Source: Nostoc punctiforme PCC 73102
Lineage (GTDB): Bacteria; Cyanobacteriota; Cyanobacteriia; Cyanobacteriales; Nostocaceae
Direction of reading: 5' to 3'
Length of the DNA stretch: 32,000 nucleotides
NCBI RefSeq assembly: GCF_000020025.1
Contig: NC_010628.1
Location: 2,550,001-2,582,000, forward strand
Shown here: positions 1 to 24,769 of the stretch, one piece after another
Position numbering within the stretch: the stretch's first letter is position 1
Layout: the number at the start of each line of letters is the position of its first letter
Translations under genes and position numbers: made by a program
Notes under the pieces: model-generated
The model's input: the letters and a program-made list of their open reading frames with translations, nothing else
What the model was told of the DNA's origin: nothing
The model's database searches: none

Positions 1-56
1 GTCAAACCAGACGGTCCGCCGCCAACAATGCACACATCAGTATCAATCGTTCTCAT
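1..56 (-). CDS. FAD/NAD(P)-binding oxidoreductase, first 18 codons only (gene continues past the left edge)
   Basis: Not in the ORF track because no stop lies in the window. The reverse complement of 1..56 reads ATG then MRTIDTDVCIVGGGPSGL. This is a GxGxxG dinucleotide-binding fingerprint at the extreme N-terminus, as in flavin monooxygenases and reductases. Same strand as the acyltransferase gene and 93 nt downstream of it. Confidence 0.45.
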   Translation of the reverse strand, partial: MRTIDTDVCIVGGGPSGL

Positions 57-149
57 GATAATTACTCTTTTGGTGAAATTTGCAATTAAATCCGTTTGTA
101 ACTTCTTCTTTCTACCTTTGCGCCTTTGCGTGAGATTTCCTCACCCAAT

Positions 150-911
150 TCATTCGCAAAACTTTTCCAGCGATTCTCTAATATCGCTCAAAATATCTGC
201 CGCCATCGCACCATCAATTACCCGATGGTCAAAAGTCATACTCAAACGCATCACAGGAGCAATTTTAATTTCCTCCTTTTGTACAACAGCCTGCGATTGA
301 ATTTGTCCCAATCCAAAAGTGAGTGTAGTTCCTCCTACCGAAAAAAAGCTGTTAATTGATTTGTGGCCGAGTGAAGAAACCGAGAATGTACCCAGGCGGC
401 TTCTCCGTCTTTTTAAATCGGCAAGAATCAAACCAAATATCAATTCTGCTAAGAACAAAGGAAGTTTTTGTAACTTTTTCAGAGCAGCGTATTCCTGAAT
501 ATTATCAAAATCATTTAATTTGTAATAATCAATGGTGTTTTGAATTCCTTGTAAAGAAATTTGGTTAGCATGAGGAATTAAACCAGGAAGAACTACACGC
601 TGCTCACCTATTTTTTTGTCCAAAGCAAACTTTGCGCTTACAGTATCAGACTGCGCTAACTTCGGTAATAATCCCCCTAAAAGACTGCTATTAGCTTCTG
701 GATATTTAGAGAGAACTCGTGCAGCCGCATAGATAAAATAAGTGATGATGCTCAATTTAGTTTGTGCCAGTGTAGCCGAACCTTCTCGTAAATTGAGAAT
801 TTTCGTCATGTCTACATCTGTATCTATAAAAACAGGACTGCAAGCTCTGGCATAGTTTAAAAAAGCAAAGGTATGTTTCCGTTCATTGGGAAAAGGCAGA
901 ATGTTAATCAT
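150..911 (-). CDS. 2-oxoacid dehydrogenase E2-type acyltransferase catalytic domain protein (stand-alone, no lipoyl domain)
   Basis: The C-terminal motif SMTFDHRVIDGAMAADIL matches the DHRxxDG catalytic His motif of E2 and chloramphenicol-acetyltransferase-fold acyltransferases. I place the start at the ATG at 911 (MINILPFP...), because the longer track ORF (to 1016) would overlap the upstream ACP gene. Confidence 0.75.
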   Translation of the reverse strand: MINILPFPNERKHTFAFLNYARACSPVFIDTDVDMTKILNLREGSATLAQTKLSIITYFIYAAARVLSKYPEANSSLLGGLLPKLAQSDTVSAKFALDKKIGEQRVVLPGLIPHANQISLQGIQNTIDYYKLNDFDNIQEYAALKKLQKLPLFLAELIFGLILADLKRRRSRLGTFSVSSLGHKSINSFFSVGGTTLTFGLGQIQSQAVVQKEEIKIAPVMRLSMTFDHRVIDGAMAADILSDIRESLEKFCE

Positions 912-930
912 AAAGGTTGAATATTCTTGC

Positions 931-1152
931 TTACTGAATAGACTCGTAAATGTCTTTGATATTACGTGCTTGCAGCATAGATAAAACAGAGACTTTCTTA
1001 CCTGTGCGGATTTCAATCGAAGTAATCAAACGCAATAGACCAAGAGAATCCCAGCCTCCTAATTGATCAAAAGGAGTATTAATATCTTGTTCGGCAATCG
1101 GTAATTCTAGTACGTCTTGAATGAGATAAACCAAATCTGTAACGTTATTCAC
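931..1152 (-). CDS. acyl carrier protein (73 aa)
   Basis: GGWDSLGLLRLI carries the DSL phosphopantetheine-attachment serine, and the size is ACP-like. A GTG start at 1152 follows ACAGGAG and overlaps the FkbH stop (GTGAATAA), suggesting translational coupling. The track start at 1206 would lie inside fkbH. Confidence 0.75.
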   Translation of the reverse strand: MNNVTDLVYLIQDVLELPIAEQDINTPFDQLGGWDSLGLLRLITSIEIRTGKKVSVLSMLQARNIKDIYESIQ

Positions 1153-3061
1153 GAGTAAAACTCCTGTAGTCAGAAGATAAATTGATATGCTTAACAGAAA
1201 GAGCAATATTGTCTGTCAATGAGCGAAGATAAAGTACTCTCTGAGGAGTTTCTTCAACAAGTTCAAAGCCTTGCTTTTTATAAAAATCATGGACTTTCTG
1301 ATTTTTGGAAGATGGAATATACTCTGCGTAAACCTTTTCAATTTTTGCTTCTTTAGCCTGCTGTAAAATATGTTCTAGGCTAATTGTTTCAATCCCTCGT
1401 GAGAAAACCCGACAACTCAGTAGAAAATTATCTATGTAAAGTTCGCGTTCCTTGTCGATAGGTTGGCGAGTAAAGATACAGCCAACAATTCCATTGTCTC
1501 CAAACCGGTCTTGAGACTCAATTCCAATAATTGTGATAGATGAATCATCAAGAAGTTGATTAATTTCTCCCTCTTGATAGCGCTTAGTAGTCATATTGAA
1601 CTGATTGGTGCGTAAAGTGAGTTGAGAAATTCGCACAATATCTGCTTGTTGGGGTGCGAACAACTTCACTTTCAGTTCCAGTTCATTCAAGTAATCATCT
1701 ATGGAATCAAAATTTCCGAGAAATTCTTGGCGTTTAACCTCAGTTTTATATTTTTGAGTCCGGCTGTAATCTTCTTTGGTGATTTCAAGAGTATTGAACC
1801 AACCTCCTGTAAGCAAAGTTTTGGTGTAGCTTGCTGGGTCTTCTTCAAGTTCCAGCACCGTAACATTTGGCTGTTTGGAACGTACAAGATTGCGTTCAAA
1901 TTCACTATCATCAACAAAGACAAAACTATCTAAACCCAAGTTCAGCGATTGAGAAATTTCTTTCAGGTTTTCATGTTTTGGAGACCAGTTGGCGCAGATG
2001 TTGACAAAATCATCTTCTCGTAAAACCATTTTAGGATGATTCTGCAAAACATCTTTAACTTTTTCTATGTCATTTTTACTATTAATGGCAAGAACTATAC
2101 CTTGGTCTGCAAGTTGTTTGATAACAAGTTGAAATTGATGATATGCTTCTCCAACTAAGGTATCGCTAACTTCAATTCCTTCATTACCATCATCGCCAAG
2201 AATACCTTTCCAGAGAGTATTATCTAAGTCAAGAACCAAACATTTTCGGGTTTTTCCTTTGATAACTCGACTAATTTTACTAATCTCAAAAGCATAATTG
2301 GATAATAACGATTCCGTCATGTATATCTTGGCATATTGACTTAGACGGTCATCTGATAGTCCGGTAGCATTTGCTAAAAAAGGCTCAATATCTAGAACAA
2401 TTAAACTTTTGAATTGATTAGATAACTTGAGGAGACTAGCGTTAAATTCTTTCCAGAGACTACTTAAATATGCTTTCGATTTGTAATCTAGAAGTTGGTT
2501 AGTTCGGTTGAGTGAGAGAGGAATTGTGTTTAAAATCAACAATCCTGAACTTGTATTAACATATTGATTTACAAGCTTTTCTAGATGTTGCAACTTCTCT
2601 TGTAAAATATGCTGAATATCTAATAATCGCCAGGGAGTCACTAATTCATTAAATATCAAATGTTCGTCAAGTAGACAAACTGTGATTTCTGGTTGGTGTT
2701 CATACAGCGCGCTATTAACATCAATAATTTCATAGACATATTGCCCATAGTCTGCAATATAAGTATTAGGGAATATATTGTCACGCAGGTGAAAGTAATT
2801 CAAAAAAGGTTGGATAGGATTGAGAACAAAATTACCAGTCAAAGCAATATTGACTTTTTTAACGTCAGGATATCTGGTTGCAATTTCCGAGTAGTCAAGA
2901 TTTTTCAAAATCTGACCTACTTGTGCTATTTCTTCAGTTGTTTCTACATCCTTGAGAAGATGAGATACTCTAGAAAATTCAGCTTCTATTTGCTTTGAGC
3001 GTTTGAGTTCACGAATTTCTTGGATAACATTATTAATGGTATTTGAATTGATAGTAACCAT
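1145..3061 (-). CDS. FkbH-like HAD-superfamily (subfamily IIIC) phosphatase / glyceryl-S-ACP synthase
   Basis: LVLDLDNTLWKGILGDDG is the signature DxDxT HAD motif I in the FkbH context. The 638-aa length is typical of full-length FkbH-like proteins with an N-terminal domain and a C-terminal acyltransferase-like domain. An ACP gene lies immediately downstream. Confidence 0.85.
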   Translation of the reverse strand: MVTINSNTINNVIQEIRELKRSKQIEAEFSRVSHLLKDVETTEEIAQVGQILKNLDYSEIATRYPDVKKVNIALTGNFVLNPIQPFLNYFHLRDNIFPNTYIADYGQYVYEIIDVNSALYEHQPEITVCLLDEHLIFNELVTPWRLLDIQHILQEKLQHLEKLVNQYVNTSSGLLILNTIPLSLNRTNQLLDYKSKAYLSSLWKEFNASLLKLSNQFKSLIVLDIEPFLANATGLSDDRLSQYAKIYMTESLLSNYAFEISKISRVIKGKTRKCLVLDLDNTLWKGILGDDGNEGIEVSDTLVGEAYHQFQLVIKQLADQGIVLAINSKNDIEKVKDVLQNHPKMVLREDDFVNICANWSPKHENLKEISQSLNLGLDSFVFVDDSEFERNLVRSKQPNVTVLELEEDPASYTKTLLTGGWFNTLEITKEDYSRTQKYKTEVKRQEFLGNFDSIDDYLNELELKVKLFAPQQADIVRISQLTLRTNQFNMTTKRYQEGEINQLLDDSSITIIGIESQDRFGDNGIVGCIFTRQPIDKERELYIDNFLLSCRVFSRGIETISLEHILQQAKEAKIEKVYAEYIPSSKNQKVHDFYKKQGFELVEETPQRVLYLRSLTDNIALSVKHINLSSDYRSFTRE

Positions 3062-3071
3062 GATTGATTCC

Positions 3072-4106
3072 TTACACTCTTGATAGTGCTAAACCACCTT
3101 TAATCCATTTGGATGATTCGACTGTAATGCAAAAAGCTCGTTGCCCTTGATGCATAATTGACTCCAAATTTTGCAGCTGAATGAAAGGTAAAGCATTAGC
3201 TACATTTCCGGTTTCTGTAACGCAATGTACTGCTTTCTCTACAGGAATATCCATGAACTCAACAATGCGTTTGCTCATATTTCCTGAAAGTTGAGGAGGC
3301 AATATAAAATCAATATCATGTAACTCCCATTCCACTGCATCCATGAGAGATTCCAATATTTCTTTCGCCAAAACCGGGACTGCCTTTTCTATAGCTTTAT
3401 AGTCTTCTTTAACAGCTTGTGGAAGTTTTGTATCACCTGCTGGAGGTACAGCAAACCAATTGAGTATTTGACCTGGTTCTTTGTCTAAACCTGTTAGTTG
3501 GTTCAGCACGTATTCGATTGTAAAACCTGTTTTGTTCTCTTCGCTTGTCAAAACTGCTGCACCAGCACCATCACCAAACAAAACATAATTTACTAGTTCA
3601 CCTGACGGCATATTATTAAAGTCACGGTTAAAATCTGCAAATCTAGAGCAAATATCACCGCCAATTACTAAACCAACTTTGTAGCTACCACTAAGTAAAA
3701 ATTGCTGGGCGACATCTAAGCACTGAACTGCGCCACTGCATCCAGATTGTAGCTGATATGTTGGGACTAAGTTGATTCCTAGTTTTTCTGCAACCAAGTT
3801 CACTGTAGCAGGCATGAGAAAATCTGGAGTGCCTGTTGCCATAACTATAAATTCAATATCTTGGATTGAATAACCAGAATTTTGAATTGCCTCTTTAGCA
3901 GCATGAGCGCATATTTCTGCTAATGTATGGGTTGTTTCTTGGGTAACAAGGTCAACGGCAAAATACCGTCTTTTACTACCAATAAAGACCTCAATCCAAT
4001 CTTTATTTATATTGAATATTTCTGCAAGTTGTTTGTTTTCAACTGGTTTACCTGGTAAAAAAGTGCCTAGCCCAGCGATAGTAACTGTGCATTTTGCGTC
4101 TGTCAT
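3072..4106 (-). CDS. KASIII (FabH)-like thiolase-fold enzyme, atypical active site
   Basis: Aligns by eye to E. coli FabH. QSGCSGAV matches AAACAGF (nucleophilic Cys present), VLFGDGAGAAVL matches IIFGDGAGAAVL, and ETGNVANALP matches RHGNTSAASVP (Asn present). The HQAN block is replaced by LPPQLSGNM, so His becomes Pro. The stop lies 10 nt before the fkbH ATG, with an AGGAA in between. Confidence 0.85.
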   Translation of the reverse strand: MTDAKCTVTIAGLGTFLPGKPVENKQLAEIFNINKDWIEVFIGSKRRYFAVDLVTQETTHTLAEICAHAAKEAIQNSGYSIQDIEFIVMATGTPDFLMPATVNLVAEKLGINLVPTYQLQSGCSGAVQCLDVAQQFLLSGSYKVGLVIGGDICSRFADFNRDFNNMPSGELVNYVLFGDGAGAAVLTSEENKTGFTIEYVLNQLTGLDKEPGQILNWFAVPPAGDTKLPQAVKEDYKAIEKAVPVLAKEILESLMDAVEWELHDIDFILPPQLSGNMSKRIVEFMDIPVEKAVHCVTETGNVANALPFIQLQNLESIMHQGQRAFCITVESSKWIKGGLALSRV

Positions 4107-4367
4107 AATCTACTCTAATTGGTGATAAAGTTGAAAGTCTGTTTTTTACTTTCTTATCTCATACATAGGTGCAGAGAAAGAAAAGAGAGCGAACTAAGTA
4201 AGATTGTGTTGCGATATGTAGAAATGTAAAGGATGTGAGATTTAGATACAAGGGAAAATCTTTCGCTAATTAGGGATGTATATAAGGTTTTAGAAGTTGG
4301 GAGTTGGGAATTAGGAGTTAGTTATCCTATTCTCCGTGTCCCCGCGTCTTTGCGTCCCCATGTCCCT

Positions 4368-5123
4368 TTACTCCCATTGCCAGCATTTAAGATGCCAATC
4401 ACGTCCTTCTACAGCCAGGGCACCTACATAGCTCAAAGCAGGGATAAATGCTTGGAGAGACCAACGGATGACAGTGGAGCGATCGCCATTAATGCTGTAA
4501 AGTTGAACTGGCTCATTCTGTGATAACGAAACATCTAATTGATCCATCGGAAAAACTAGTCCCTGTCCAGTTGCTTTTAGATAAGCTTCTTTCCGAGTCC
4601 AACAGTTAAAAAATGCTCCTAATTTTTCATCCTGAGGCAGTTTACGAAAGACATCTTTTTCTCTATCGGAAAAACAACGTTCAGCAACTTGTTCAAAATC
4701 AGAAATAGGGCGCATATATTCAATATCCACACCAATTTCTCGTTGACGCGTAACGGCATACAAAACAAGTTCATGGGAGTGAGATAGATTAAAGCTCAAT
4801 GTATTCCCACCAGATGTTTCTGCTAAAACTGGTTTACCGTGTGAGCCATAACAAAACTGCAATTGGCTGGCATTAGTGCCTAAGTAAGAGCCTAAAATTG
4901 TCCGAAGTAACCCGCGTCCAACAATGTAACGCTTTTTATCTCGCTCCAAATAAAAACGCTCAGATCGGGTACGTTCGTCTTGTGAAAGTAATTCTGCTAA
5001 GGTCTCAACACGAGATGTTGATTGATTAAGGAAAGTACACCAAACATGAACATCTTCGCCTAAGACTGACCAGTTTGTTGGTGGAGGACGCCACAGACAA
5101 TCAACAGTATCAACAGCGATCAT
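4368..5123 (-). CDS. Sfp/HetI-type 4'-phosphopantetheinyl transferase
   Basis: Contains GVDIEYMR and FNCWTRKEAYLKATGQGL, the two hallmark motifs of Sfp-type PPTases. Length is 251 aa. Confidence 0.9.
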   Translation of the reverse strand: MIAVDTVDCLWRPPPTNWSVLGEDVHVWCTFLNQSTSRVETLAELLSQDERTRSERFYLERDKKRYIVGRGLLRTILGSYLGTNASQLQFCYGSHGKPVLAETSGGNTLSFNLSHSHELVLYAVTRQREIGVDIEYMRPISDFEQVAERCFSDREKDVFRKLPQDEKLGAFFNCWTRKEAYLKATGQGLVFPMDQLDVSLSQNEPVQLYSINGDRSTVIRWSLQAFIPALSYVGALAVEGRDWHLKCWQWE

Positions 5124-5200
5124 AAAAAGTAGCCCTGGTGGTTCTATAGGAATGTAGTTTCAGTCTTTGTCTCATACTGGTCTTAGTTCGCTGAAATAAT

Positions 5201-5641
5201 TTAGCGGACACACTCAACTTCCTGGGCTAAATGTTGGGCTAACACTTGAACTGTAGGATACTCATACACCACCTCTATAGAAAGGCGACAACCAAGCCAA
5301 ACTTCTATGGCATGTATCAGACGTAACGCTTCTAAAGAAGTTATGCCGTAGTATTCAAAAGGCAGATTAATGTTGATTTCGCTATGATTTACTAACAGCA
5401 GTTTAGAAAGATAGAAAACTAACCAGCCTTGAATAACTTCCTCTGTTTGAAATAGTTTATGAAAAGGCAATGCTTGACGATAAGCAGATCCAAGTTGCAC
5501 TTGAGGATTTTTCTTGTATGAAAATTTTTCGCTACTCTTCGTATTACCAAAATTTTGTATCCACTCAAGTAGTGCATTATGATTATCTGTGAAAAATTGC
5601 ATTAATTCAGTATTCCTGAAAGCATTGGTTGTAAATGTCAT
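5201..5641 (-). CDS. stand-alone carrier protein (PP-binding domain) with about 70-aa N-terminal domain of unknown function
   Basis: The C-terminal half, IQGWLVFYLSKLL...PFEYYGITSLEALRLIHAIEVWLGCRLSIEVVYEYPTVQVLAQHLAQ, follows the PCP/ACP pattern (FxxxGxxSLxAxxL...PTxxxLAxxL). The attachment Ser is preceded by Thr rather than Asp or His. Start chosen at the second ATG (MTFTT), which lies 10 nt after AAAGGAG. Confidence 0.6.
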   Translation of the reverse strand: MTFTTNAFRNTELMQFFTDNHNALLEWIQNFGNTKSSEKFSYKKNPQVQLGSAYRQALPFHKLFQTEEVIQGWLVFYLSKLLLVNHSEININLPFEYYGITSLEALRLIHAIEVWLGCRLSIEVVYEYPTVQVLAQHLAQEVECVR

Positions 5642-5804
5642 TTTTGTTTCTACTCCTTTCATAATTGAAAAATATCCTTTTAACTTTCAGATGTTATGGA
5701 TAAAAAAACAATACAGTTGGAATGAATTGTTTTGTTTTATTAGTAATCTACCATCTAGATAGATTTAGATGTTTTAAACTAGCACCAAAATCCTTAATAG
5801 ATAC

Positions 5805-6578
5805 TTATGAGATAGATGCATTTCTCCATTCTTTTGGAGGACGCTTATGAATCTGGCGAAATAAGCGGATGAAATAACCTGCATCTAGATATCCAACTTT
5901 AGTAGCAATTTGATTGATGGATTCATCGCTATTGAGCAGCAAAGAGCGGGCTTGTGTCATCCGGCGCTCAACAATCCAATCGTGTACTGTTCGCTTAGTT
6001 TGACGCTTGACTAAATGTGTCAAGTAAGCATTAGAGTATCCTGCTGCTTGAGCAACATCAGAAAGGCTGATTTGTTGATGATAATTCTCTTCAATAAATT
6101 GGAAGACTCTACTAAGTTTAGAGCTAGTAGGATAAAAATTTGTAGTGTCGGTAGATTCTGATTCTTTAGGTGATTGCCGCTGATTAAGATACCACTGTTT
6201 AAGAATTTTTTGCTTTTCTAATCGAGCAGCGATCGCTCCTACTAATTCTTCTACTGAACAAGGTTTAGTCAGATAATCATCTGCACCTAAATTCATGCCT
6301 TTACGTAGTTCGGCTTTGCTAAGTTTAACAGTCAGAAAAATAAAAGGAATAATCGCTGTCACAGGATTTTGGCGTAGTCTACTCAGAACACCATAACCAT
6401 CAAGTTCTGGCATCGAAACATTGCAAAGTACTAAATCCGGTGAATATTCCTCTGCACGCTGGACACCAACCATGCCATTCTCTGCACCAATAGTATCAAA
6501 ACCTTTAGATTTTAGAGAATTGACAAAAAGGTTGCGGGTTTGTGTCTCATCTTCAATCACTAATATATTGTTCATCAT
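5805..6578 (-). CDS. response regulator with AraC-type HTH output; receiver domain has Asn at the phospho-acceptor position
   Basis: Receiver domain features are ILVIEDE, PDLVLCNVSMPELDG, IIPFIFLTVK and ADDYLTKP. The C-terminal AraC/XylS HTH is shown by SLSDVAQAAGYSNAYLTHLVKRQT...YLDAGYFIRLFRQIHKRPPKEWR. Start placed at the ATG at 6578, preceded by AGGAGAA. Confidence 0.85.
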   Translation of the reverse strand: MMNNILVIEDETQTRNLFVNSLKSKGFDTIGAENGMVGVQRAEEYSPDLVLCNVSMPELDGYGVLSRLRQNPVTAIIPFIFLTVKLSKAELRKGMNLGADDYLTKPCSVEELVGAIAARLEKQKILKQWYLNQRQSPKESESTDTTNFYPTSSKLSRVFQFIEENYHQQISLSDVAQAAGYSNAYLTHLVKRQTKRTVHDWIVERRMTQARSLLLNSDESINQIATKVGYLDAGYFIRLFRQIHKRPPKEWRNASIS

Positions 6579-6951
6579 TTCTCCTGCTAATGATTTACTA
6601 AGATACTTTTCAGTAGTTAGTTGTAAACAAAGCGAATACATCTAGCATCTCTCAATCTTTTTTCAAAAGAGCGATGACGAAGCGTGTAAAAGCTTATCTG
6701 CTACAGCAGCTACATTCATTCGCAAACCTTGTTATTTATAGATTGCCAGCTCTTAAAGATTTACACCAGTAAATATCTAAAATTTAAGGATCAACTTAAT
6801 GATTAACTGTTTTTCTACTAGTTGAAGCTGATTAGATATCCAAATGGCTTAACTTTTAAAGAATGTTAGCCAATAACTTAGCGATCGCAACTTGACTTAA
6901 AGAAGAATTCAGAATCGATTATGGGGATTCTCATTTGAACGAGTTAGACAT

Positions 6952-9712: not shown

Positions 9713-11581
9713 ATGAGTTCAACACATTGTCCTGTAAATCCTCCCACACATCAATATTTGGAGCAAAATATGTTGGTATTATCAGAGGCAACTACACAAT
9801 TAAAGTATCCATCGAAGGCTTTCGTTTCTTTCCCGGAAAGTAACTCATTGATTGCAGACATCCAAGCAAGTACGTCGTTGGATACATTTGCTTTCAATAA
9901 TCAAGACTCAGAGTCGATTTCAGTTGCTTCTGCAATTGTGAAAATGCTAGAAGACTTGGGAGTGGAATATGCGTTTGGTGTTTCCGGAGGTGCGATCGCT
10001 CCTGTATGGTACAAACTACAACATAGTTCAATTAAGTTACTGCACTTTCGTCACGAAGCCGGAGCAGCCTTTGCAGCCACCGAAGCCTATTTTGCGAGTG
10101 GTCGCCCGGTTGTAGTGTTTACGACATCAGGGCCGGGGATCACCAATGCCCTGACTGGATTATTAGCTGCACGCTGGGAAGATGCCAAAGTAATTTTTCT
10201 GTCGGCTTCTACCTCTGCACCACAGCGAGGACGTTGGGCACTTCAAGAAACCAGCACCTACACCATGCCCAGTGCCGGACTTTTTACCTCGGATTCCCTC
10301 TTCCATTACGCAACTACTCTCGAATGTAGTGAGGAACTTCCAGAAGTCTATCGAAGGCTAGCCAAAGGTTTAGCCCGACCCGATGGCTTTGTAGCACACT
10401 TGAGTATCCCCACTAACATCCAAACCAATTCAGTCGAGAAATCTTTGCCACCAGTCACACTCTCTTTTGCTGCACCAACAGCCAGTGACGAAGCCATCTC
10501 AGAATGTGGACACTTACTTTCGGAAGGGCCATTTGCCATCTGGGTTGGCTTTGGTGCGCGGTTTGCAGCGGCTGAGATTCGCCAGCTAGCTGAGAGGACA
10601 GGGGCAGGGGTGATGTGTTCACCACGTGGGAAAGGTATTTTTCCAGAGGATCATCCTCAATTTGTGGGGATCACGGGTTTTGCTGGACATGAATCAGTTC
10701 TGAGATATATGCAAGAACACCGTCCTCTAAGGACATTAGTACTCGGAACACGTCTTGGTGAATTTACCTCATTTTGGAACCCCGCGATGATCCCTTTGCG
10801 GGGATTTTTGCATGTTGACATCAATCCAGATGTGCCAGGAACCGCTTACCCATCTAGCGAGACGATCGCTATTCAGTCTGACGTGAAAATGTTTGTCAAA
10901 GCCTTACTCAAGCGCTTTCCGAAGCGGCAAAATCGGGCAAAAAAACAGTCTTTGCCTAGACCTGAAAGGAGTGTAATCAATGCCAGCACAAATAGTCCGG
11001 TGCGGCCTGAAGTACTGATGAATCTCATGCAACGAGTGATTGTTGAAGGTAGCGATGCCATCGTCATGGCTGAAGGAGGCAATTCATTTGCTTGGGCAAT
11101 TAACCTACTGCGATTTAGCAAACCGGGACGTTTCCGGGTCAGCACTGGATTTGGGGCTATGGGTCACTTCGTTACTAGCGTTGTGGGTGCAGCTTTAACA
11201 CATCAAGGTAAAGCGATCGCGATCGTTGGAGATGGTGCCATGCTGATGAACAATGAAGTCAGCACAGCCGTGAGGTATCAGATACCTGCGGTTTGGATTG
11301 TCCTCAATGATGCACGCTACAACATGTGCGAACAAGGTTCCCAAATGCAGGGTTACGAGAGCATGGATGTAGAAATACCACAGACAGATTTCGTCATGCT
11401 TGCCCGCAGCATGGGAGCCGACGGCATCCGTGTTGAAAAAGAGTCTGATATCCAAGCAGCATTAGAGATAGCAATGGCTTCTACTAGTCCATTCGTTATT
11501 GATGTACTTATCGACCATACTAGATTGGCACCGATTGGAACTCGTATTTTTAGTTTGATGTCACAAGGCGCTAAAAATTAG
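9713..11581 (+). CDS. thiamine-diphosphate-dependent enzyme of the acetolactate-synthase / acyloin-synthase fold
   Basis: The three-domain ALS layout is visible: GVEYAFGVSGGAIAPVW, FRHEAGAAFAATEAY (catalytic Glu), GPGITNALTGLLAA, and the ThDP-binding motif VGDGAMLMNNEVSTAV...VLNDARYN. About 65 aa of N-terminal sequence has no counterpart in ALS enzymes, so the true start is uncertain. Confidence 0.9.
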   Translation: MSSTHCPVNPPTHQYLEQNMLVLSEATTQLKYPSKAFVSFPESNSLIADIQASTSLDTFAFNNQDSESISVASAIVKMLEDLGVEYAFGVSGGAIAPVWYKLQHSSIKLLHFRHEAGAAFAATEAYFASGRPVVVFTTSGPGITNALTGLLAARWEDAKVIFLSASTSAPQRGRWALQETSTYTMPSAGLFTSDSLFHYATTLECSEELPEVYRRLAKGLARPDGFVAHLSIPTNIQTNSVEKSLPPVTLSFAAPTASDEAISECGHLLSEGPFAIWVGFGARFAAAEIRQLAERTGAGVMCSPRGKGIFPEDHPQFVGITGFAGHESVLRYMQEHRPLRTLVLGTRLGEFTSFWNPAMIPLRGFLHVDINPDVPGTAYPSSETIAIQSDVKMFVKALLKRFPKRQNRAKKQSLPRPERSVINASTNSPVRPEVLMNLMQRVIVEGSDAIVMAEGGNSFAWAINLLRFSKPGRFRVSTGFGAMGHFVTSVVGAALTHQGKAIAIVGDGAMLMNNEVSTAVRYQIPAVWIVLNDARYNMCEQGSQMQGYESMDVEIPQTDFVMLARSMGADGIRVEKESDIQAALEIAMASTSPFVIDVLIDHTRLAPIGTRIFSLMSQGAKN

Positions 11582-11620
11582 AGCATTGCATACTTGCAGA
11601 ATGACTTGAGATTTGTGACT

Positions 11621-11723
11621 AGGACTTACGCCAAATATCTTTCCAACTCTCATTTCTTCGTGTCCTCTGCGCCTCTGCGGTAGCCTGCGGCAAGCCACTT
11701 CTCTACGAGACGCTACGCGAACG
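11621..11723. repeat. composite small dispersed repeat / MITE-like filler between the ThDP and KASIII genes
   Basis: Begins with AGGACTTACGC, which is also part of the terminal repeat of the IS at 25414/27837. It ends with CACTTCTCTACGAGACGCT (11696..11714), which is identical over 19 nt to 18938..18956. Confidence 0.45.
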
Positions 11724-11776
11724 TGTTTACGTTATTCCATATAATCAGCAACCCCAAAATTCAAGGAGATATCATA

Positions 11777-12916
11777 GTGAATTACCCAGTAGGCATTAGA
11801 TCGCTAGCATTGAGCTTGCCAAGCATCAAGCGTACAAACGATTACTATACAAATAAGTATCCCGAAGCGATCGCTCAGTCCGAGCAAAAAAGTTTAGCAA
11901 GATTGTTTTCCCTTGCTGGCTCTACCCCCAGCAACGAGTTTGACTCAGAAATGTTGCCCTATATCAAAGACCCTTTTCGCGGCACTGTCCACCGATGGGT
12001 ACTAGCACCAGATGAATCCTCACTCATGCTGCAAGAGCGTGCAGCTCGTGAAGCTCTGGACGCAGCAAAACTGACTCTCAAAGAAATCGATCTCATGCTC
12101 GTCGCCTCAGTTTGGCCTGAACAAATTGGATTTGGCGATGCTGCTTTTCTCGCTGGTAAACTTGGCTTAGAAGGTGCTGCGTGGAATCTTGATGCAGCCT
12201 GTGGCGTAACCCCAGTTGCACTACAAACTGCCTTTGCCTTAGTCCGAGCCGGAGAGTATCGCAATGTACTAGTGGTCATTTCATGTGCATACTCTCGTTT
12301 TTTCGATGAAGACGATACCCTGTCATGGTTCATGAGTGATGGTGCTGGAGCTTGCGTAGTCAGTTCACTCGCACCAAATCAAGGCATCCTTGGCACAAAG
12401 ACCATTCATACTGCTGCTTTATGTAATAGCTTTTTTGCCAAACTCACCGAGGATGACCAGGGTAATCCACACATACACATGCGGATGGGCAAAGGCGCAA
12501 ATAAAGCCATCCGCGAAACGGCTGTAGGGCAACTGCGTACTTGTTGTGAAGGCGCACTGGCGGCAGCCAATGTCAAACTTGAGGAAATTGACTTTTTTAT
12601 TTTCAATACATCCACTGCTTGGTCAGCAAGCTTCTGCACACGCGTACTAGGCATTGACCCAGAGCGGACAATCAATCTTTACTCTGAGTATGCAAACATT
12701 GGTCCAGTAATCACCATAGCCAATCTGTACTATGCTGCACAACTGGGCAAGATTCACGAAAATGACTTAGTTCTTATTTATGGTTTGGGTGCAGCAGGTG
12801 CCGCCTCTGCAAGTGTCATGCGTTGGGGCGATGTAGCATTAGGTTCTGTTCCAAATCTCCACCAACCTGAAATAATACTGAAAAGTTCCTTAGATCGTAG
12901 CTTAGTTGTTTGCTAA
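11777..12916 (+). CDS. KASIII-like thiolase-fold enzyme, atypical active site (Cys / Asn / Asn)
   Basis: NLDAACGVTPVAL matches the FabH AAACAGFTYAL block (Cys present) and MSDGAGACVV matches FGDGAGAAVL. FIFNTSTAW replaces VPHQANLRI, so His becomes Asn. YANIGPVIT matches HGNTSAASV, so Asn is kept. Start set at the GTG at 11777, 8 nt after AAGGAG; the track start at 11723 lies inside a repeat element. Confidence 0.8.
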   Translation: MNYPVGIRSLALSLPSIKRTNDYYTNKYPEAIAQSEQKSLARLFSLAGSTPSNEFDSEMLPYIKDPFRGTVHRWVLAPDESSLMLQERAAREALDAAKLTLKEIDLMLVASVWPEQIGFGDAAFLAGKLGLEGAAWNLDAACGVTPVALQTAFALVRAGEYRNVLVVISCAYSRFFDEDDTLSWFMSDGAGACVVSSLAPNQGILGTKTIHTAALCNSFFAKLTEDDQGNPHIHMRMGKGANKAIRETAVGQLRTCCEGALAAANVKLEEIDFFIFNTSTAWSASFCTRVLGIDPERTINLYSEYANIGPVITIANLYYAAQLGKIHENDLVLIYGLGAAGAASASVMRWGDVALGSVPNLHQPEIILKSSLDRSLVVC

Positions 12917-13018
12917 ATATAGGACTCATATTTGATTGCGTAAGAAATCCGGTTTACACCTAACGCAAAAGGCAAGAAGCAATTAATACTTTTCCTATTC
13001 CCTATTCCTCATTCCCTT

Positions 13019-13996
13019 ATGAAAAAACAATTTTTGGCGACAGGTTTCTTTTTGTTGTCTTTGATGTTTCCACTCAAAGCTTCGGCACAAAATTATGACG
13101 ATATTTATGTCTTTGGTGACAGCTTATCGGATACGGGTAATGTATTTAATTTCACAAATGGAGCTATTCCCCCAAACCCGACCTACTTTAATGGACGTTT
13201 TTCCAATGGCCCAATTTGGGTGGAATATCTCGCCTCTGAGTTAGGGTTAACTTTCAATCCGAACAACAACTTCGCCTTCGGTGGTGCAACTACAGGAACC
13301 GATAATTTAGGACTAAGTTTCCTACCAGGATTAAAACAAGAAATTAATGATTTTACAACAACAAATAACTCTGCTAATCCGAACGCGCTTTATATCATTT
13401 GGGCTGGTACTAATGATTATTTGGAGTACTTTTATGGTAATACTCCTAACCCAACAGAATCTGTCAGCAATTTATCCTCAGCAATAACCTCCCTGGCTGG
13501 TGTGGGCGCTGAAAATATTTTGGTAGTTAATTTACCAGATTTAGGAAAGTTTCCAGTTACAGGTGACAATAGTCAAACAGCAAGCGCACTAAGCACTTTC
13601 ACAAATGTACATAACTCTGATTTAACGAAGACTATTAATTTGTTAAACCAGGAACTAAGTCCTGAGACTAATATTATTCCTCTCGATGTTAATTCTTTAT
13701 ATAATCGCATCATTGCTACTCCCGAAGAATTCGGTTTTACAAATGTCACCGACTCTTGCATCGGAGATTTATCGGTCGTGCCCATTGAGGTTCTGGTGAA
13801 GCCAGTTGTATGTAATCCAGACCAGTTTTTATTCTGGGATGAAGTGCATCCAACAACTGCTACTCATCAGCTAATTGGAGAATTAGCATTTTTAGCATTG
13901 AAGTCGGCCTCTGTCCCTGAATCTTCTAATGTGTTAGGAGTATTGATATTTGCTGCTTTATGTGTGATTTCGCTACGAAAACGTCATAGCTATTAG
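13019..13996 (+). CDS. secreted GDSL/SGNH esterase-lipase with C-terminal PEP-CTERM sorting signal
   Basis: Signal peptide MKKQFLATGFFLLSLMFPLKASA. GDSL block I is IYVFGDSLSDTGN and block V is FWDEVHPT. The C-terminus VPESSNVLGVLIFAALCVISLRKRHSY has a PE-S motif, a hydrophobic helix and a basic tail, which is the PEP-CTERM architecture. Confidence 0.85.
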   Translation: MKKQFLATGFFLLSLMFPLKASAQNYDDIYVFGDSLSDTGNVFNFTNGAIPPNPTYFNGRFSNGPIWVEYLASELGLTFNPNNNFAFGGATTGTDNLGLSFLPGLKQEINDFTTTNNSANPNALYIIWAGTNDYLEYFYGNTPNPTESVSNLSSAITSLAGVGAENILVVNLPDLGKFPVTGDNSQTASALSTFTNVHNSDLTKTINLLNQELSPETNIIPLDVNSLYNRIIATPEEFGFTNVTDSCIGDLSVVPIEVLVKPVVCNPDQFLFWDEVHPTTATHQLIGELAFLALKSASVPESSNVLGVLIFAALCVISLRKRHSY

Positions 13997-14037
13997 TCAG
14001 TGCAAAACAAACTAATCAAAAACAAAGGAGTATGCGC

Positions 14038-14790
14038 ATGAGTAGCCAATTGTATGGAAAAGTTGCCTTGGTGACTGGCGCTTCATCAGGTATAGGTAAA
14101 GCTACGGCGATCGCATTTGCCCGCGCTGGAGCCAAAGTTGTGGCTGCTAGCCGCCGCACCACCGAGGGAGAAGAAACCGCGCACTACATCCAAGAAATTG
14201 GAGGAGAAGCTATTTTCATCAAAACTGATGTGTCAAAGGCTGCTGATGTAGAGACACTAATTGAGAAAACCATAGATATTTATGGTCGTTTAGACTGTGC
14301 TTGCAACAATGCCGGACTTGGGGGTGCAGCCAGCCCGATCGCGGATATGTCGGAAAAAGACTGGGATCAACTGGTTGACGTAAATTTGAAAGGAACCTGG
14401 CTTTGTTTGAAGTACCAAATCAGGGCAATGCTCAAACAGGGAAGTGGGGCGATCGTCAATATCGCTTCCGCCGCTGGTGTGGTCGGTTTCCCTGGTTTTA
14501 CTGGCTACTGTGCTACTAAAGGTGGGGTCATCGCTTTAAGCAGAGCCGCAGCTATGGAGTATGCCAAAGCAGGTATCCGGATTAATGTTGTCAGTCCTGG
14601 TGCGATCGCCACTGATATGCTAGCTACGTTACCTACAGATGTACTTGCTCAACTCACAGCAATGCATCCCATCGGACGCATTGCCAAGCCTGAAGAGGTG
14701 GCTGAAAGTGTAGTCTGGTTATGTTCGGATGGTTCTTCATTTCTCGTCGGGCACAACATGATGGTTGATGGAGGATATACCGCTCAGTAA
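14038..14790 (+). CDS. short-chain dehydrogenase/reductase (FabG-like)
   Basis: Contains GKVALVTGASSGIGKATA (TGxxxGxG), NNAG, and YCATKGG (YxxxK). Start taken at the ATG at 14038, 8 nt after AAGGAG. Confidence 0.9.
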   Translation: MSSQLYGKVALVTGASSGIGKATAIAFARAGAKVVAASRRTTEGEETAHYIQEIGGEAIFIKTDVSKAADVETLIEKTIDIYGRLDCACNNAGLGGAASPIADMSEKDWDQLVDVNLKGTWLCLKYQIRAMLKQGSGAIVNIASAAGVVGFPGFTGYCATKGGVIALSRAAAMEYAKAGIRINVVSPGAIATDMLATLPTDVLAQLTAMHPIGRIAKPEEVAESVVWLCSDGSSFLVGHNMMVDGGYTAQ

Positions 14791-15254: not shown

Positions 15255-18200
15255 CTAAAAATTACACGCCCCTAAAACTTTTAAAGTTGCAATAGTCGCT
15301 TCAGTTAAATCAGTCACGCCAGTAATATTCATTCCTTCATAAGGTCTTTCGCATCTGAGAGTTTTTAGGCACTCACCTGTTTCTATATCCCAAAGTCTAA
15401 TCGTCTCATCTTCGCTACCACTAGCCAAAATCTTACCTTGAGGATTAAACGCAACCGACCAAACCCACTTGTTATGTCCTGACAAAGTTTTTATTTCTTT
15501 ATTGGTGCTTAAATCCCACAGCTTGATTGTTTGATCTCCGCTACCACTGGCTAAAATGCAACCATCTATACTGATGGCAGATGAGTATACGCAATTAGTA
15601 TGCCCCTGCAAGGTTCTCAGACACTTACCTGTGCTGATATCCCACAGTTTCACTGTTTGATCTCCGCTGCTACTTGCTAAAGTCATACCATCAGGACTAA
15701 AAACGACTGACCAGATCCAGTCAGTATGACCTTCCAGAACTTGAATGCAACTACCAATGCAGACATCCCACAACCTTACTGTTTGGTCATGGCAACCACT
15801 GGCTAGTGTCTGACCATCGGGACTGAAAGCAACTGACCAAATCCGCTGAGTGTGCCCTTGCAAGGTTTTCAGACATTTACCTGTGTTGACATCCCACAGT
15901 TTTATACTTTGGTCATCACTGCCAGTTGCTAGGATTTTACCATCAGGACTAAAGGCAACTGAGATAATCCGATTACTATGTCCGCCCAAGGTTTTGAGAC
16001 ACTGACCTGTGTTGGCATTCCACAGTTTCACAGTTTGATCCTCACTGCCACTAGCAAGGAGGTTCCCGTCTTGGCTGAGGGAAACTGATGTGACGCGATT
16101 ACTATGTCCCCGCAAAGTTTTTAAGCAAAGACCAGTGCTAGTATCCCAAAGTTTCACTGTTTGGTCGTTATTGCCACTTGCAAGAATTTGACCATTGGAA
16201 CTGAAGGTCACCGACCAGATGCCATTACAATAACCTTGTAAGGTCTTGAGACATCCACCAGTATTAACATCCCACAGCCTCACTGTTTGGTCATCACTGC
16301 CACTGGCGAGCATTTTACCATCAGGACTAAAGGCAACTGACCATACCCGACTGCCATGCCCCTTGAGAGTTTTGAGACAAAGACCAGTGTTAACATCCCA
16401 TAGTTTTACTGTTTGGTCATCACTGCCACTTGCTAGGCGATCGCCATCTGAACTAAAAGCAACTGAATTCACCAAATCAGTATGACTCTGGAAAGTATAA
16501 AGACATTCACTAGTGTTAATATCCCATAGCCTTACCGTTCGGTCATGACAACCACTAATTAGCTTATCACCATCTGGACTGAAAGCAACTGACTGTACCC
16601 TATGGGTGTGTCCCACCAAAGTTTTGATGCATTGACTAGTACTAATATCCCACAGTCTGATGGAGGAATCATCATTTCCGCTAGCAAGGATTGTACCATC
16701 AGGACTAAAGGCTACTGACCAGACTCGGCTACTGTGTCCCTGGAGAGTCTGAATACATTGCCCAGTGCTAGTATCCCACAATTTCACCGTTGTGTCTTCA
16801 CTACTACTTGCTAGTGTCTGACCATCGGAACTGAAGGAAACTGACCAGATTCCAGCACTATGACCCTGGAAGGTGGCAAGGCATTGCCCAGTGCTAGTAT
16901 CCCACAACTTCACTGTTTGGTCATCACTGCCACTAGCAAGGAGATGACCATCGGGGCTAAAAGTTACAGGCCAGATAAAACCTGTGTGTCCTTTGCAAAT
17001 GAACAGTTGTTTTCCATCAGCAACTTGATACAGGCGAACCTCACCATTAGTATCTCCTGTAGCTAATAGTTTGCCATCAGGACTAAATGCCACTGCATGA
17101 ATACCGCCAATGGTTTCTGCAAAAACACATTTAGCTAAATTAGCATTTACAAAACTAGCATTTTGCAAATTTACATTCCGCAAATCTGCTTGCCAAATAG
17201 TTAGATGAGAAAAATCACTACCACTAAGGTCAGTTCCCAAATAACAAAGCAGATTAATAATATTTCCAGCTGTATAACTTTGTTCTAGAGGTGATGTTTC
17301 TCTTAGGGTTGTGAGAATTTGAATTAGATGATTTTCCAGAGTTCTTTGGCTTCTAAAGATGGCAAAAAGCCCTTCGATGACTGGTTTTAGGATCAGGTGA
17401 ATTTGACTTTCTCTTACATAGTCTTTTGTCGTTGCCTTGACTAAAGCATGGCATCGGAAAATCTCGATATTATGAGTGCTAATTTCTTGACAAACTTGCT
17501 CTACTAAGCGATTAATCACATATTCCATAACTACAGGCTGGAGAGTGAATAGTGCTTCGCTTTTTTCAACTAGAGAGCGCCTCACCAAAGATTCCAAAAC
17601 CTCCAAGAACTTTTGGAATGTTAATGCTGATATAATATCTTTTTGTAATTCCGAAAGTGAAACTGGCTCATGATTAATTGCCAGCCAATACATTATTTCT
17701 TTTTCTAAATTTGATAAACGTTCAAACTGCTGTTCTAAAATATCCCAAATATCACCGAAAACAACTGCATCTTGTTTTAAAAATTCCGAAACATTACCAC
17801 CAAATAAATCTTGAATAGTTGTCGCAACTACTTTTAAAGCTAACGCATTGCCTCCATAACGTGCAACTAATGTTCTTAGTTCATCATCTGAAGCTGATAT
17901 TCCTTTTATTTTTAAAATTTCTTGTCCGTCATTTGCCAAAAGACCTTTGAGCAGAAATGAACGAACACATAAACCACCTCCTTCCATAGATGCAACTTCT
18001 TTCGGTTTTTCCCTACTTGTTAGGATTAAACAGCTTTGTTGTTCCGTTTCTCCTAATCGTTTTAGAAGTTCGCTATATCCTTCGTATCCATCTCGATAAA
18101 GTCCGGCCCGACTACCGCTGCGTAAAATCGACTCCATATTATCTAGTATTAATAAACAGCGATGCTCTCGCAGATAATGTAGCAGTCGTGTTAGTCTTGG

Positions 18201-18782
18201 AGCTGTGCTTTCTGGGAGAATTGCTTCTGTTTCCCGTTCATCAGAAAGAAATTGGATTAAGCTAGCTAAAAGCGTATTGAGTGGAGGAGCATCTTGTAGC
18301 GATCGCCAAATAATGTACTCAAAATTCTCCTTAATTTGTTCTACAAGCTTGACAGAGAGAGAAGTTTTCCCAATCCCCCCCATACCTAAAATTGCCACTA
18401 TCTGACAGCGTTCTTTTAAAATCCATTGCTCTAATGTGGCTATTTCTTCTGTGCGTCCATAAAAAACCGATCCACCAATTGCTTCTCCCCAATCTAAATG
18501 TCGAGATTTGTCTGAATTTGTAAAATCAGCTTTATCTAACTCTAAATTGAAAGCTTGAAAAAAAAGCTCAAGTGTCTTTTTATCAACTCCTTCCCCACGA
18601 GATAATACCTTAGAAACTGTAACAGTATTTACTTTTACGCGTTCACTTAAATCTTCAAGGGTATATCTATTTCCGTAATTTTCTCTGTCTTCAAGGGCAA
18701 TTTTACCAGATTGAAGCTTTTGTAATCCTTCCAGTGTAAGAATAAGACCGCGCTTGCGTTTTTGCTTTTGAACCTGCGTCAT
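15255..18782 (-). CDS. STAND NTPase: N-terminal HTH, NB-ARC, short pentapeptide-repeat linker, 14 WD40 repeats
   Basis: The N-terminus [26 protein letters not shown] is HTH-like. NB-ARC motifs are GMGGIGKTS (Walker A), CLLILDNME (Walker B), LILTSRE and [10 protein letters not shown] (GLPLAL-like). The pentapeptide stretch is [22 protein letters not shown]. Then come 14 units of about 42 aa, of the form GH..-[23 protein letters not shown]. The C-terminal tail is [26 protein letters not shown]. Confidence 0.9.
15339..17117 (-). repeat. 126-nt tandem coding repeats (14 WD40 blades)
   Basis: The plus-strand string ccatcaggactaaa recurs at 15940, 16318, 16696 and 17074, a spacing of 378 nt (3 x 126). 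Other strings such as gtttggtcatcactgccact also recur between blades. Confidence 0.85.
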
Positions 18783-23464: not shown

Positions 23465-23722
23465 CGCCAAATGGCAAGATTCTCCATTAGCAAAAGCCTC
23501 TAGTAGTCTGCCAAGCTAACTTTGCTATGTTAAATTTGGATATAAACGCTCCATTTTTCGGCGAGCATCTTTGGTTTGAAAACCCCAATAAACACTAGCT
23601 TTTTGCTGATTACGTTTTTTCTCCCAAGCGGCAATCTCAGAAGTTAATGTTTCTGCATTAGGAATACGCCGTTCTAAACATTGGCGAGATAAAACAGATA
23701 ATTCGATTTCTACCTGATTCAG

Positions 23723-23778
23723 CCCTTCGGGTTCGCCAGTTGCTTCAAGTCGGGGAACCCGCCCAACGCACTGGCTCA
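23723..23778. repeat. 56-nt hairpin-type small repeat inserted in the IS630 transposase gene
   Basis: Between codons ...KHASW and LNQVEIE the minus strand reads TGAGCCAGTGCGTTGGGCGGGTTCCCCGACTTGAAGCAACTGGCGAACCCGAAGGG. The core GCCAGTGCGTTGGGCGGGTTCCCCGACTTG..AAGCAACTGGCG is also present at 19766..19833. Confidence 0.7.
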
Positions 23779-24271
23779 CCAAGAAGCGTGTTTAGGAGTA
23801 TAGTGAAACTCTAACTTTTGAATAATTCGACGTGCTTCTTCTGGTGGAAAAACTTCATATAATGCATTGGGTGTATGAATATTCAAGTTATCAACTACTA
23901 AACGAATAACATCGGCATCTCGGTAGGAAACATCTACTAAATTTTTCATTTGTTTAGCAAAATCGGCTTTAGTTCGACGTTCTGTAACTTCGATATGCCG
24001 CCATCCAGCCAAGGGTTGAAAACATGCGAATAAATTTACTGTCCCGTTACGTTTATACTCAAAATCATAACGTTCAGGTTGCTCTGGCTGTGGTGGCAAA
24101 GGAAGTCTTACTTCTTCTACTAATTGGTATGGACGTTCATCAAAGCAGACTACAGGGCGTTTAGGATCATAAGGCTCATTGTATAAATCCAGCACATCTT
24201 CCATTCGGAAAACATATTCTGCGTTAACTTCAGGAATACACCATTGTTCTTTCAACCAAGGCTTAATTTCA

Positions 24272-24279
24272 TTTTTTTT
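24272..24279 (-). promoter_or_regulatory. candidate -1 programmed ribosomal frameshift site (A AAA AAA A) joining IS630 orfA and orfB
   Basis: The minus strand reads ACT TTA AAA AAA ATG AAA. Slipping back 1 nt gives ..[17 protein letters not shown], the contiguous sequence expected for full-length IS630-type transposases. Confidence 0.55.
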
Positions 24280-24769
24280 AAAGTTTGACGTACTGTTTCA
24301 TCTGAGATTGAATCTATGATACCAACGTTCACTAAATGATCTGCTAATAATTGCATTGTCCAACGCACTCTTCCTTCTGGCGGATTAGAACAAGCTGTTG
24401 CAATCAAAAATGCTTCTTGCTTTTCATCTAATTTTTTATGTTTTGGTGGATGAACTTCATCCTTTAAAGCAAAATCTAACCCTCCAATGACAAATTTTTC
24501 TCGTATTCGTTGCACTGTTGCAACATGCGCTCTAACTATGCTAGCGATCGCTTGATCCGTTTCTCCTTCGGAAGCCATCAAAAGAATGTTTGCACGGCTT
24601 ATGGTTCTTGCCTTATGCTTACCTTTCTTAATTATCGATTGCAGTTGGGAAACTTCATCTTCATTCAAGTCAACAATGTACTTTTTTGCCATGTTACACC
24701 CCGTTTTTGGCTATTTTACCAATTAGAGGTTTTACTTAGCAAAGTTACCTTGGTACACTACTAGAAAGT

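Follow-up and report, generated by a model that had tools for sequence, protein, structure and literature searches.

Two groups of described systems stand closest to the genes considered here. The first comprises the tetronate pathways. The agglomerin (Agg1-Agg5) and abyssomicin (AbyA1-AbyA5) cassettes unite five protein types, namely an FkbH-type enzyme, an acyl carrier protein (ACP), a FabH-like enzyme, an E2-type acetyltransferase and an alpha/beta-hydrolase eliminase, the last of which, AbyA5 in the abyssomicin case, catalyses the elimination of acetate. The RK-682 pathway couples RkD, RkE and RkF with a fatty-acyl loader and a single module of ketosynthase, acyltransferase and ACP domains (KS-AT-ACP). 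The second is pks1 of Nostoc punctiforme PCC 73102, which consists of two adjacent subclusters, nvl and ncl, under the AraC-type regulator AraC_PKS1 (RS10525) (Krumbholz et al., Angew. Chem. Int. Ed. 2022, PMC9324945). In that account, the nvl subcluster is assigned to nostovalerolactone, a cell-density-dependent mediator, and the cyanobacterin-like ncl subcluster to the nostoclides (PMC9324945). We analysed a stretch of 32,000 nucleotides of the PCC 73102 genome (contig NC_010628.1, positions 2,550,001 to 2,582,000; the whole stretch is referred to as the window), at the left end of which a set of biosynthetic genes (1..5662) lies beside a regulator gene (5805..6641). Together, these almost certainly represent the upstream end of the nvl subcluster of pks1.

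In gene content, gene order and domain identity, the locus is that of the published strain. Five proteins encoded in the window were found by exact look-up to be residue-for-residue identical to those of PCC 73102 (ACC80706, ACC80707, ACC80704, ACC80710 and WP_234711072), and a second record of the same genome, L001, matched the window at 100% identity over 6.7 kb (window 1..6700) before continuing into a gene for an FAD monooxygenase and then into one encoding a fatty acyl-AMP ligase fused to an acyl-CoA dehydrogenase (FAAL-ACAD). The DNA is the same as that of nvl and nothing differs, the window ending 56 bases into nvlH, and the published order D-E-F-G-H-I-J-K-L-M-N...Q is the one reconstructed independently here. 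The finding is not new, a 2022 publication having already described the locus together with its product and its role in signalling. The earlier note on this DNA, which had been made from the sequence alone and knew of no characterised cyanobacterial tetronate pathway, was mistaken on this point, this very locus being the nvl part of pks1 (PMC9324945). The published assignments describe NvlD, NvlE and NvlF as homologues of RkD, RkE and RkF, NvlG and NvlN as homologues of Agg4 and Agg5, NvlH as an MtmOIV-like oxygenase, NvlQ as a Baeyer-Villiger monooxygenase (BVMO), NvlI as the FAAL-ACAD loader for octanoate, and NvlJ to NvlM as four polyketide synthase (PKS) modules (PMC9324945). The regulator gene 5805..6641 very likely encodes AraC_PKS1 (RS10525); RS10485, the 'core gene' of the paper, has a tag eight places lower than RS10525, in keeping with NvlI in this order of genes. 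The genes concerned are listed below by window position and strand; here and throughout, bit scores are those of searches against Pfam and NCBIfam models or PDB sequences.

1..56, minus strand: NvlH, FAD-dependent monooxygenase of 406 aa, N-terminus in the window, the gene running on leftward; FAD_binding_3
150..911, minus strand: NvlG, putative stand-alone E2-fold O-acetyltransferase of 253 aa, Agg4 homologue; PF00198; ACC80704 / B2J544
931..1152, minus strand: NvlF, putative ACP for the C3 (glyceryl) unit, 73 aa, RkF homologue; PF00550, serine in WDSLG
1145..3061, minus strand: NvlE, putative FkbH-type glyceryl-S-ACP synthase of 638 aa, RkE homologue; TIGR01686; ACC80706 / B2J546
3072..4106, minus strand: NvlD, putative FabH-like ring-forming ketoacyl-ACP synthase III (KASIII) of 344 aa, RkD homologue; PF08545 and PF08541; ACC80707 / B2J547
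4368..5123, minus strand: Sfp/HetI-type 4'-phosphopantetheinyl transferase (PPTase), NvlC if lettered by position; PF01648 and PF22624
5201..5662, minus strand: extra carrier protein of 153 aa, NvlB if lettered by position; PF00550, 46 bits
5805..6641, minus strand: response-regulator/AraC-type transcription factor; Response_reg, HTH_18 and HTH_AraC; ACC80710

The six tightly packed minus-strand genes in 1..5662 (carrier protein, PPTase, KASIII-like enzyme, FkbH, ACP and E2 acyltransferase) had been described with the same domains in the earlier note, and all six are present where it placed them, with motifs that can be read directly from the sequence. One boundary required amendment: the gene for the second carrier protein is real, but its open reading frame (ORF) is 5201..5662 and not 5201..5641, position 5641 being an internal ATG. 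The profiles for FkbH (TIGR01686), PF00198, PF08541/PF08545, PF00550 and PF01648 each matched the expected gene, and because the domain scores far exceed the curated cutoffs, the assignment of the cassette is not due to chance. Judged by their domains and motifs, the genes for KASIII, FkbH, ACP and E2 are a tetronate-type glycerate-utilisation cassette in canonical order, as the note had proposed; the same five-gene block, KASIII-FkbH-ACP-E2-hydrolase, is found uninterrupted on a Streptomyces plasmid (L092). The cluster also has its own PPTase, and the host is a cyanobacterium, N. punctiforme, again in agreement with the note; the HIP1 element GCGATCGC occurs in 24 copies in the window, against about 0.2 expected from base composition. 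The features of a tetronate cassette found here comprise an FkbH with the HAD (haloacid dehalogenase) motif DxDxT, a small ACP directly after FkbH, an FkbH-linked KASIII, a stand-alone E2 (DHRxxDG), an Agg5/AbyA5 eliminase (outside the window, in the same cluster and genome) and a terminal non-reducing KS-AT-ACP module.

NvlE scored 324 bits with TIGR01686 (cutoff 146.65) and 70 bits with the HAD-IIIC model (TIGR01681), and carries the motif LDLDNT. The GTG start of nvlF overlaps the stop of the FkbH gene as GTGAATAA, an overlap of 8 bp; the KASIII and FkbH genes are 10 bp apart, the ACP and E2 genes 19 bp, and the E2 and FAD monooxygenase genes 93 bp. In NvlG, PF00198 (85.5 bits, with DHRVIDG) is the sole domain, with neither a lipoyl nor a subunit-binding domain, and its PDB matches were E2 catalytic cores only. 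The nvlH gene begins with MRTIDTDVCIVGGGPSGL at position 56 and is seen in its entirety in L001 (7770-8990) from the same genome; its product matched the PDB entry 8uiu at 159 bits and the MtmOIV entries 3fmw and 4k5r at about 51 bits. A literature search on this nearest solved homologue (8UIU/8URC/8URD) returned only unrelated medical papers.

NvlD fell below the cutoff of every FabH equivalog model (e.g., 153 bits vs a cutoff of 249), and it is because its scores lie so far under these cutoffs that we regard it as FabH-like rather than as FabH. Its best PDB match was 5BY7 (310 bits, ~45% identity), true FabH proteins reaching at most 106 bits; 5BY7 has no informative name, and no paper citing the code was found in the literature searched. 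NvlD was compared with 5BY7 and with the FkbH-linked KASIII proteins of Nostoc sp. ChiSLP01 (L005), of the Streptomyces plasmid L086 and of three cyanobacterial relatives, namely L007 (the Xenococcaceae metagenome-assembled genome MO_167.B27), L008 (SRR6869036) and L009 (JGI 3300013013), around each of which 10 kb were visible on either side. All of those examined keep the Cys (QSGCSGA) and the Asn (ETGN), and, set against an E. coli FabH reference sequence, all have a Pro in place of the FabH catalytic His (LPPQLSG vs VPHQAN in FabH).

For the PPTase, the best NCBIfam model was HetI (266 bits, under its cutoff of 370), and the related clusters L008, L009, L086 and L093 likewise contain a PPTase gene. 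The N-terminal ~70 aa of the 153-aa carrier protein form an extension without a domain match. In the loci compared, and its own orthologues aside, the protein comes closest to the ACP at the C-terminus of the FAAL-ACAD-ACP loader (35-39% over 70-81 aa) and to the loading ACPs that stand alone in L008 and L009.

The genes to the left of position 1 were read in two sister strains in which the locus is complete, Nostoc sp. C117 (93.5% nucleotide identity) and Nostoc sp. ChiSLP01 (~89%). In both, the E2 gene is followed by those for the FAD monooxygenase, FAAL-ACAD-ACP (1263 aa), KS-AT-DH-KR-ACP, KS-AT-cMT-KR-ACP, KS-AT-DH-KR-ACP and KS-AT-ACP (DH, dehydratase; KR, ketoreductase; cMT, C-methyltransferase), and then by those for a FrsA-like alpha/beta-hydrolase, a type II thioesterase, an SRPBCC protein and an FMO-type (flavin-containing) monooxygenase. 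In N. punctiforme itself, L001 places the start of the loader gene ~1.5 kb beyond the left window edge, on the strand of the cassette; the four type I PKS modules that come next are those read in the sister strains. The tail of the nvl cluster is displayed directly by L094, which was assembled from N. punctiforme reads and in which the C-terminus of the KS-AT-ACP gene is visible. The KS-AT-ACP protein encoded directly before the eliminase measures 1114 aa in ChiSLP01, 1080 aa in C117 and 1082 aa in Rhizonema.

The FrsA-like hydrolase is the predicted eliminase of the Agg5/AbyA5 type. That of L008 matched the PDB structures of AbyA5 (4ywf, 5no5) at 246 bits (E = 6e-72), and orthologues were found in C117 and ChiSLP01 with the Rhizonema orthologue as the query and in N. 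punctiforme by way of cluster membership. The N. punctiforme protein, NvlN, is ACC80697 (L094 1966-3066); its gene lies ~25 kb from that of the E2, past the PKS genes, and its accession is seven numbers below that of the E2 (ACC80704), matching the seven genes counted in the sister strains. A 259-aa alpha/beta-hydrolase of the relatives was considered as the Agg5 equivalent and rejected, being a RifR/RedJ-like type II (editing) thioesterase. In two proteins of about 640 aa, P0297 and P0314, a FrsA-like (AbyA5-type) hydrolase domain is fused to a PF00198 E2 domain. Since such fused proteins exist, a functional pairing of the acetylating and eliminating enzymes is supported (a Rosetta-stone link).

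These flanking genes bear on the possibility that the cassette is self-contained and yields a small 3-acyl-tetronate or butenolide from a beta-ketoacyl chain supplied by fatty-acid synthesis or by the 153-aa carrier protein, with neither a PKS nor an eliminating hydrolase. From inside the window this had some appeal: the extra carrier protein and the PPTase are present, and no PKS and no alpha/beta-hydrolase are visible there. The earlier note had accordingly looked to the fatty-acid pool or the extra carrier protein for the acyl partner and had reported that the fifth cassette member was not where it would be expected; it was right that there is no PKS within the window and that an FAD gene occupies the expected place of the hydrolase, but the FAAL-ACAD-ACP gene and the four PKS modules start ~1.5 kb to the left, and the hydrolase is encoded seven genes downstream of the E2. 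As the PKS and eliminase genes lie left of position 1, both absences are effects of the window edge. The loader lies within 1.5 kb, on the same strand and in the same genome (L001); four PKS modules ending in KS-AT-ACP come after it, followed by the AbyA5-type hydrolase; the entire set is co-regulated as pks1 (PMC9324945); and a FAAL and a KS-AT-ACP module stand beside the cassette in every cyanobacterial relative (L007-L009). The gene content of the left flank thus refutes a self-contained small-tetronate cassette, which we consider exceedingly improbable. The small acyl-tetronate or butenolide suggested by the note likewise gives way to the assigned product, nostovalerolactone, built from octanoate and four extensions into a delta-valerolactone/oxepane bicycle (PMC9324945).

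The cassette may also be compared with its actinomycete counterparts. In a plasmid collection, the 13 best FkbH matches all came from records that also encode an NvlD-like KASIII, and in 12 of the 13 the FkbH gene directly abuts the KASIII gene; conversely, 13 of the 15 plasmid KASIII homologues of NvlD (42-50% identity) lie in records with one of these best FkbH matches. The Streptomyces plasmid L086 encodes a FAAL, an ACAD, an ACP, a KS-AT-ACP module, a KASIII, an FkbH, an ACP and a PPTase, an order that we take to be the RK-682 layout. Compared to the Agg and AbyA cassettes, the nvl eliminase and the E2 have ~25 kb of PKS genes between them, the place after the E2 being taken by an FAD monooxygenase, and identity to the actinomycete homologues is only ~36-50%. 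Compared to the RK-682 pathway, the layout of which recurs in the cyanobacterial loci L007-L009, the nvl loader is one fused protein, there are four modules and not one, the cassette precedes the PKS genes, and an E2, an eliminase and two flavoenzymes are added.

FkbH homologues also serve a second type of pathway, the synthesis of methoxymalonyl- or hydroxymalonyl-ACP extender units (FkbG-K type), and the FkbH and ACP of this locus could be thought to make such a unit while the lactone ring comes from elsewhere. An ACAD domain, of the family to which FkbI belongs, is encoded nearby, and one distant match (P0119) is named 'methoxymalonyl-ACP biosynthesis protein FkbH'. FkbK-type 3-hydroxyacyl-CoA dehydrogenases and FkbG-type O-methyltransferases were, however, seen in the cluster in none of the loci read; FkbK, an FkbI-type ACAD and FkbG were all looked for among the neighbours in the window, L001, L005, L087 and L094 and not found, and the only methyltransferase of the cluster is the C-methyltransferase domain inside a PKS module. 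The earlier note had reasoned that fkbI, fkbK or fkbG genes immediately to the left would speak against its reading. What lies there, with no FkbK or FkbG, is an ACAD fused between the FAAL and an ACP and resembling VLCAD/ACAD9 (~160 bits), and no FkbI entry was among the 60 PDB matches listed for this domain. Furthermore, the KASIII, the E2 and the distal AbyA5-type hydrolase around FkbH have no role in extender-unit synthesis, and the best-matching plasmid FkbH proteins are all encoded beside NvlD-like KASIII genes. We therefore give an extender-unit function practically no credence.

In the published model (PMC9324945), the gene anatomy of which agrees with that found here and each individual enzymatic step of which is inferred, the route to nostovalerolactone would begin with the conversion of the carrier proteins to their holo form by the PPTase and with the loading by NvlE (FkbH) of a three-carbon glyceryl unit onto NvlF. 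NvlI (FAAL-ACAD-ACP) would activate and desaturate octanoate, and NvlJ to NvlM would add four malonate-derived units with one C-methylation, the last module (KS-AT-ACP) leaving a beta-ketoacyl-ACP. NvlD would then join glyceryl-ACP with this beta-ketoacyl-ACP, as in tetronate formation. An oxidative rearrangement, for which NvlH and NvlQ are the candidate enzymes, would lead not to a tetronate but to a delta-valerolactone fused to an oxepane-like ring. NvlG would O-acetylate the hydroxymethyl group, NvlN would eliminate acetate to yield the exocyclic methylene of 9-dehydronostovalerolactone, and hydration of the latter would give nostovalerolactone. Expression of the genes depends on the adjacent AraC-type regulator, and the product acts as a cell-density-dependent mediator of other gene clusters. 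As to the last point, nostovalerolactone is described as inducing other clusters, e.g. ripp4, in a cell-density-dependent manner (PMC9324945), with which the earlier note's guess at a signalling molecule agrees. The published structure contains no tetronate (4-hydroxy-2(5H)-furanone) ring (PMC9324945), and nvl is thus tetronate-like up to ring formation and, by its product, not a strict member of the tetronate class. Given that structure, a spirotetronate, which the exocyclic methylene, the chain diene and the SRPBCC 'cyclase' had brought to mind, was dropped.

The paper shows dependence on the regulator, the structures of the products and the acetate labelling pattern, and reports that overexpression of AraC_PKS1 raises the expression of many clusters, the nvl set being co-regulated as pks1 (PMC9324945). 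Several points weigh against the assignment as set out above. The evidence behind the published one comprises overexpression of the regulator, transcriptomic data, acetate labelling and homology; in the text of the paper the word 'knockout' does not appear, and 'heterologous' occurs only in the general introduction and in connection with the cyanobacterin cluster (PMC9324945). 13C-Glucose and 13C-glycerol gave no label in the product, and the authors suggest a Calvin-cycle origin for the C3 unit (PMC9324945); because these precursors were not incorporated, the glyceryl/1,3-bisphosphoglycerate origin of this unit, and hence the function of FkbH, is putative in this system. As nostovalerolactone has no tetronate ring, NvlD and RkD may differ in their chemistry. 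In our own analysis, the letters NvlA-C, NvlO and NvlP were assigned by position. The four PKS genes are those of the sister strains, which are 89-94% identical to the window in nucleotide sequence where they overlap with it, and the reading in N. punctiforme itself covered the two ends of the cluster, L001 and L094.

It could further be argued that the true end product of nvl is a 3-acyl-5-methylene tetronate with a polyketide tail, akin to agglomerin or RK-682, and that nostovalerolactone is a shunt product, a derivative or the work of other genes induced by the regulator. All five canonical cassette members and the terminal KS-AT-ACP module are there to make such a compound, the text of the paper describes no gene inactivation linking nvl to nostovalerolactone, and AraC_PKS1 overexpression up-regulates many clusters (PMC9324945). 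Against this, the nvl modules agree with the acetate labelling of the isolated compounds, with their chain of octanoate and four extensions, and with their C-methyl branch and exocyclic methylene, two flavin monooxygenases of the cluster offer a route to ring expansion, and NvlH is kept next to the E2 in every cyanobacterial relative. We consider a tetronate end product very unlikely, and retain nostovalerolactone as the product of nvl.

To the right of the regulator, two plus-strand genes recall the furanolide chemistry of the other pks1 subcluster:

9713..11581, plus strand: ScyA-related thiamine diphosphate (ThDP) enzyme, CybE-like acyloin-synthase candidate; NF035927, 1077 bits (cutoff 1000); WP_234711072
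11723..12916, plus strand: second, unrelated KASIII-like protein of 397 aa, CybF-like furanolide-synthase candidate; PF08545 and PF08541

The co-localisation of a ThDP enzyme with a KASIII-annotated protein (CybE/CybF) is the hallmark of the cyanobacterin/nostoclide furanolide pathway, CybF being annotated as a 3-oxoacyl-ACP synthase. The pair in the window is likened to CybE and CybF by annotation. The 397-aa protein shares with 5BY7 a local similarity only (~32% over 94 aa) and is without the PPQLSG motif. The ThDP enzyme is a candidate member of this neighbouring furanolide-type chemistry rather than of the tetronate cassette. The two genes are part of a plus-strand stretch (9713..14790) that also encodes a PlaA-like GDSL lipase and a short-chain dehydrogenase/reductase (SDR). 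Its GC content is 0.46-0.50, with a dip to 0.39 over the lipase gene, the surroundings being at 0.33-0.38, and it is conserved beside the cassette in Nostoc sp. ChiSLP01 (L005 1..3100).

NclD, the only ncl gene that the paper mentions by name in its text (PMC9324945), is located at the opposite end of nvl. The lyase encoded at the L094 end is the N. punctiforme phenylalanine ammonia-lyase of PDB 2NYF (NclD; 495 bits); in L094 (9592..13066), it is encoded outside nvl on the far, left-hand side, past an ACP, a KS and a third KASIII. Furanolide-type genes thus appear to flank the ~45-kb nvl subcluster on both sides.

Further to the right, the window encodes a 1175-aa protein with 14 WD40 repeats (15255..18782, minus strand), a tyrosinase-domain protein of 444 aa (19889..21223, minus strand) and a CHASE2 sensor-domain protein (22112..23470, minus strand), for none of which was a link to the nvl cluster seen. 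The coding sequence of an IS630-type transposase falls into two overlapping ORFs, one with the HTH part and one with the DDE_3 part (23776..24692, minus strand), and is probably frameshifted or a pseudogene; listed with it is an entry at 26139..27554 on the plus strand, weak transposase-like fragments occurring further right. An NAD-dependent epimerase/dehydratase in two overlapping ORFs of 124 and 208 aa (28515..29473, plus strand) is a possible pseudogene; after it come an SDR (30027..30770) and a nitroreductase (30847..31494). Scanning the window for Rfam families and for tRNA genes gave no matches.

The three cyanobacterial relatives, of which no description was found in the literature searched, offer a view of what is held in common around such cassettes. 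L007, L008 and L009 share a FAAL, two stand-alone ACADs (580-596 aa), an ACP, one KS-AT-ACP module, a KASIII, an FkbH, an ACP and an E2, along with an FAD monooxygenase, a type II thioesterase and transporter genes; in L008 and L009, a PPTase gene sits between those of the E2 and the FAD monooxygenase, and L007 additionally encodes a CylC-type dimetal halogenase and an SRPBCC protein. The eliminase was found in L007 and L008 but not in the stretch of L009 covered by the reading. In a Microcystis wesenbergii metagenome-assembled genome, FkbH and eliminase orthologues were found at 61% identity. Orthologues of NvlH are encoded in all three relatives (58-62% identity), after the E2 directly or past one PPTase gene, whereas an NvlQ-type FMO was seen only in the Nostocales loci, its absence from the 10 kb on either side of the relatives being provisional. 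Because NvlH is kept in all relatives and the NvlQ-type FMO is found only in Nostocales loci, NvlH is a candidate for the oxygenase that defines the family. We put forward, tentatively and as a doubtful rather than a probable proposal, that it is NvlH and not the NvlQ-type BVMO that turns an intermediate of the tetronate type towards the ring-expanded valerolactone, and that it thereby defines a largely uncharacterised cyanobacterial family. If so, the simpler relatives would make short, sometimes chlorinated nostovalerolactone-like lactones and not agglomerin-like tetronates. The comparative data are a modest pointer in this direction, in that an NvlH-type flavoenzyme is conserved across a wider cyanobacterial family, with simpler, partly halogenase-bearing relatives in Pleurocapsales-type genomes.

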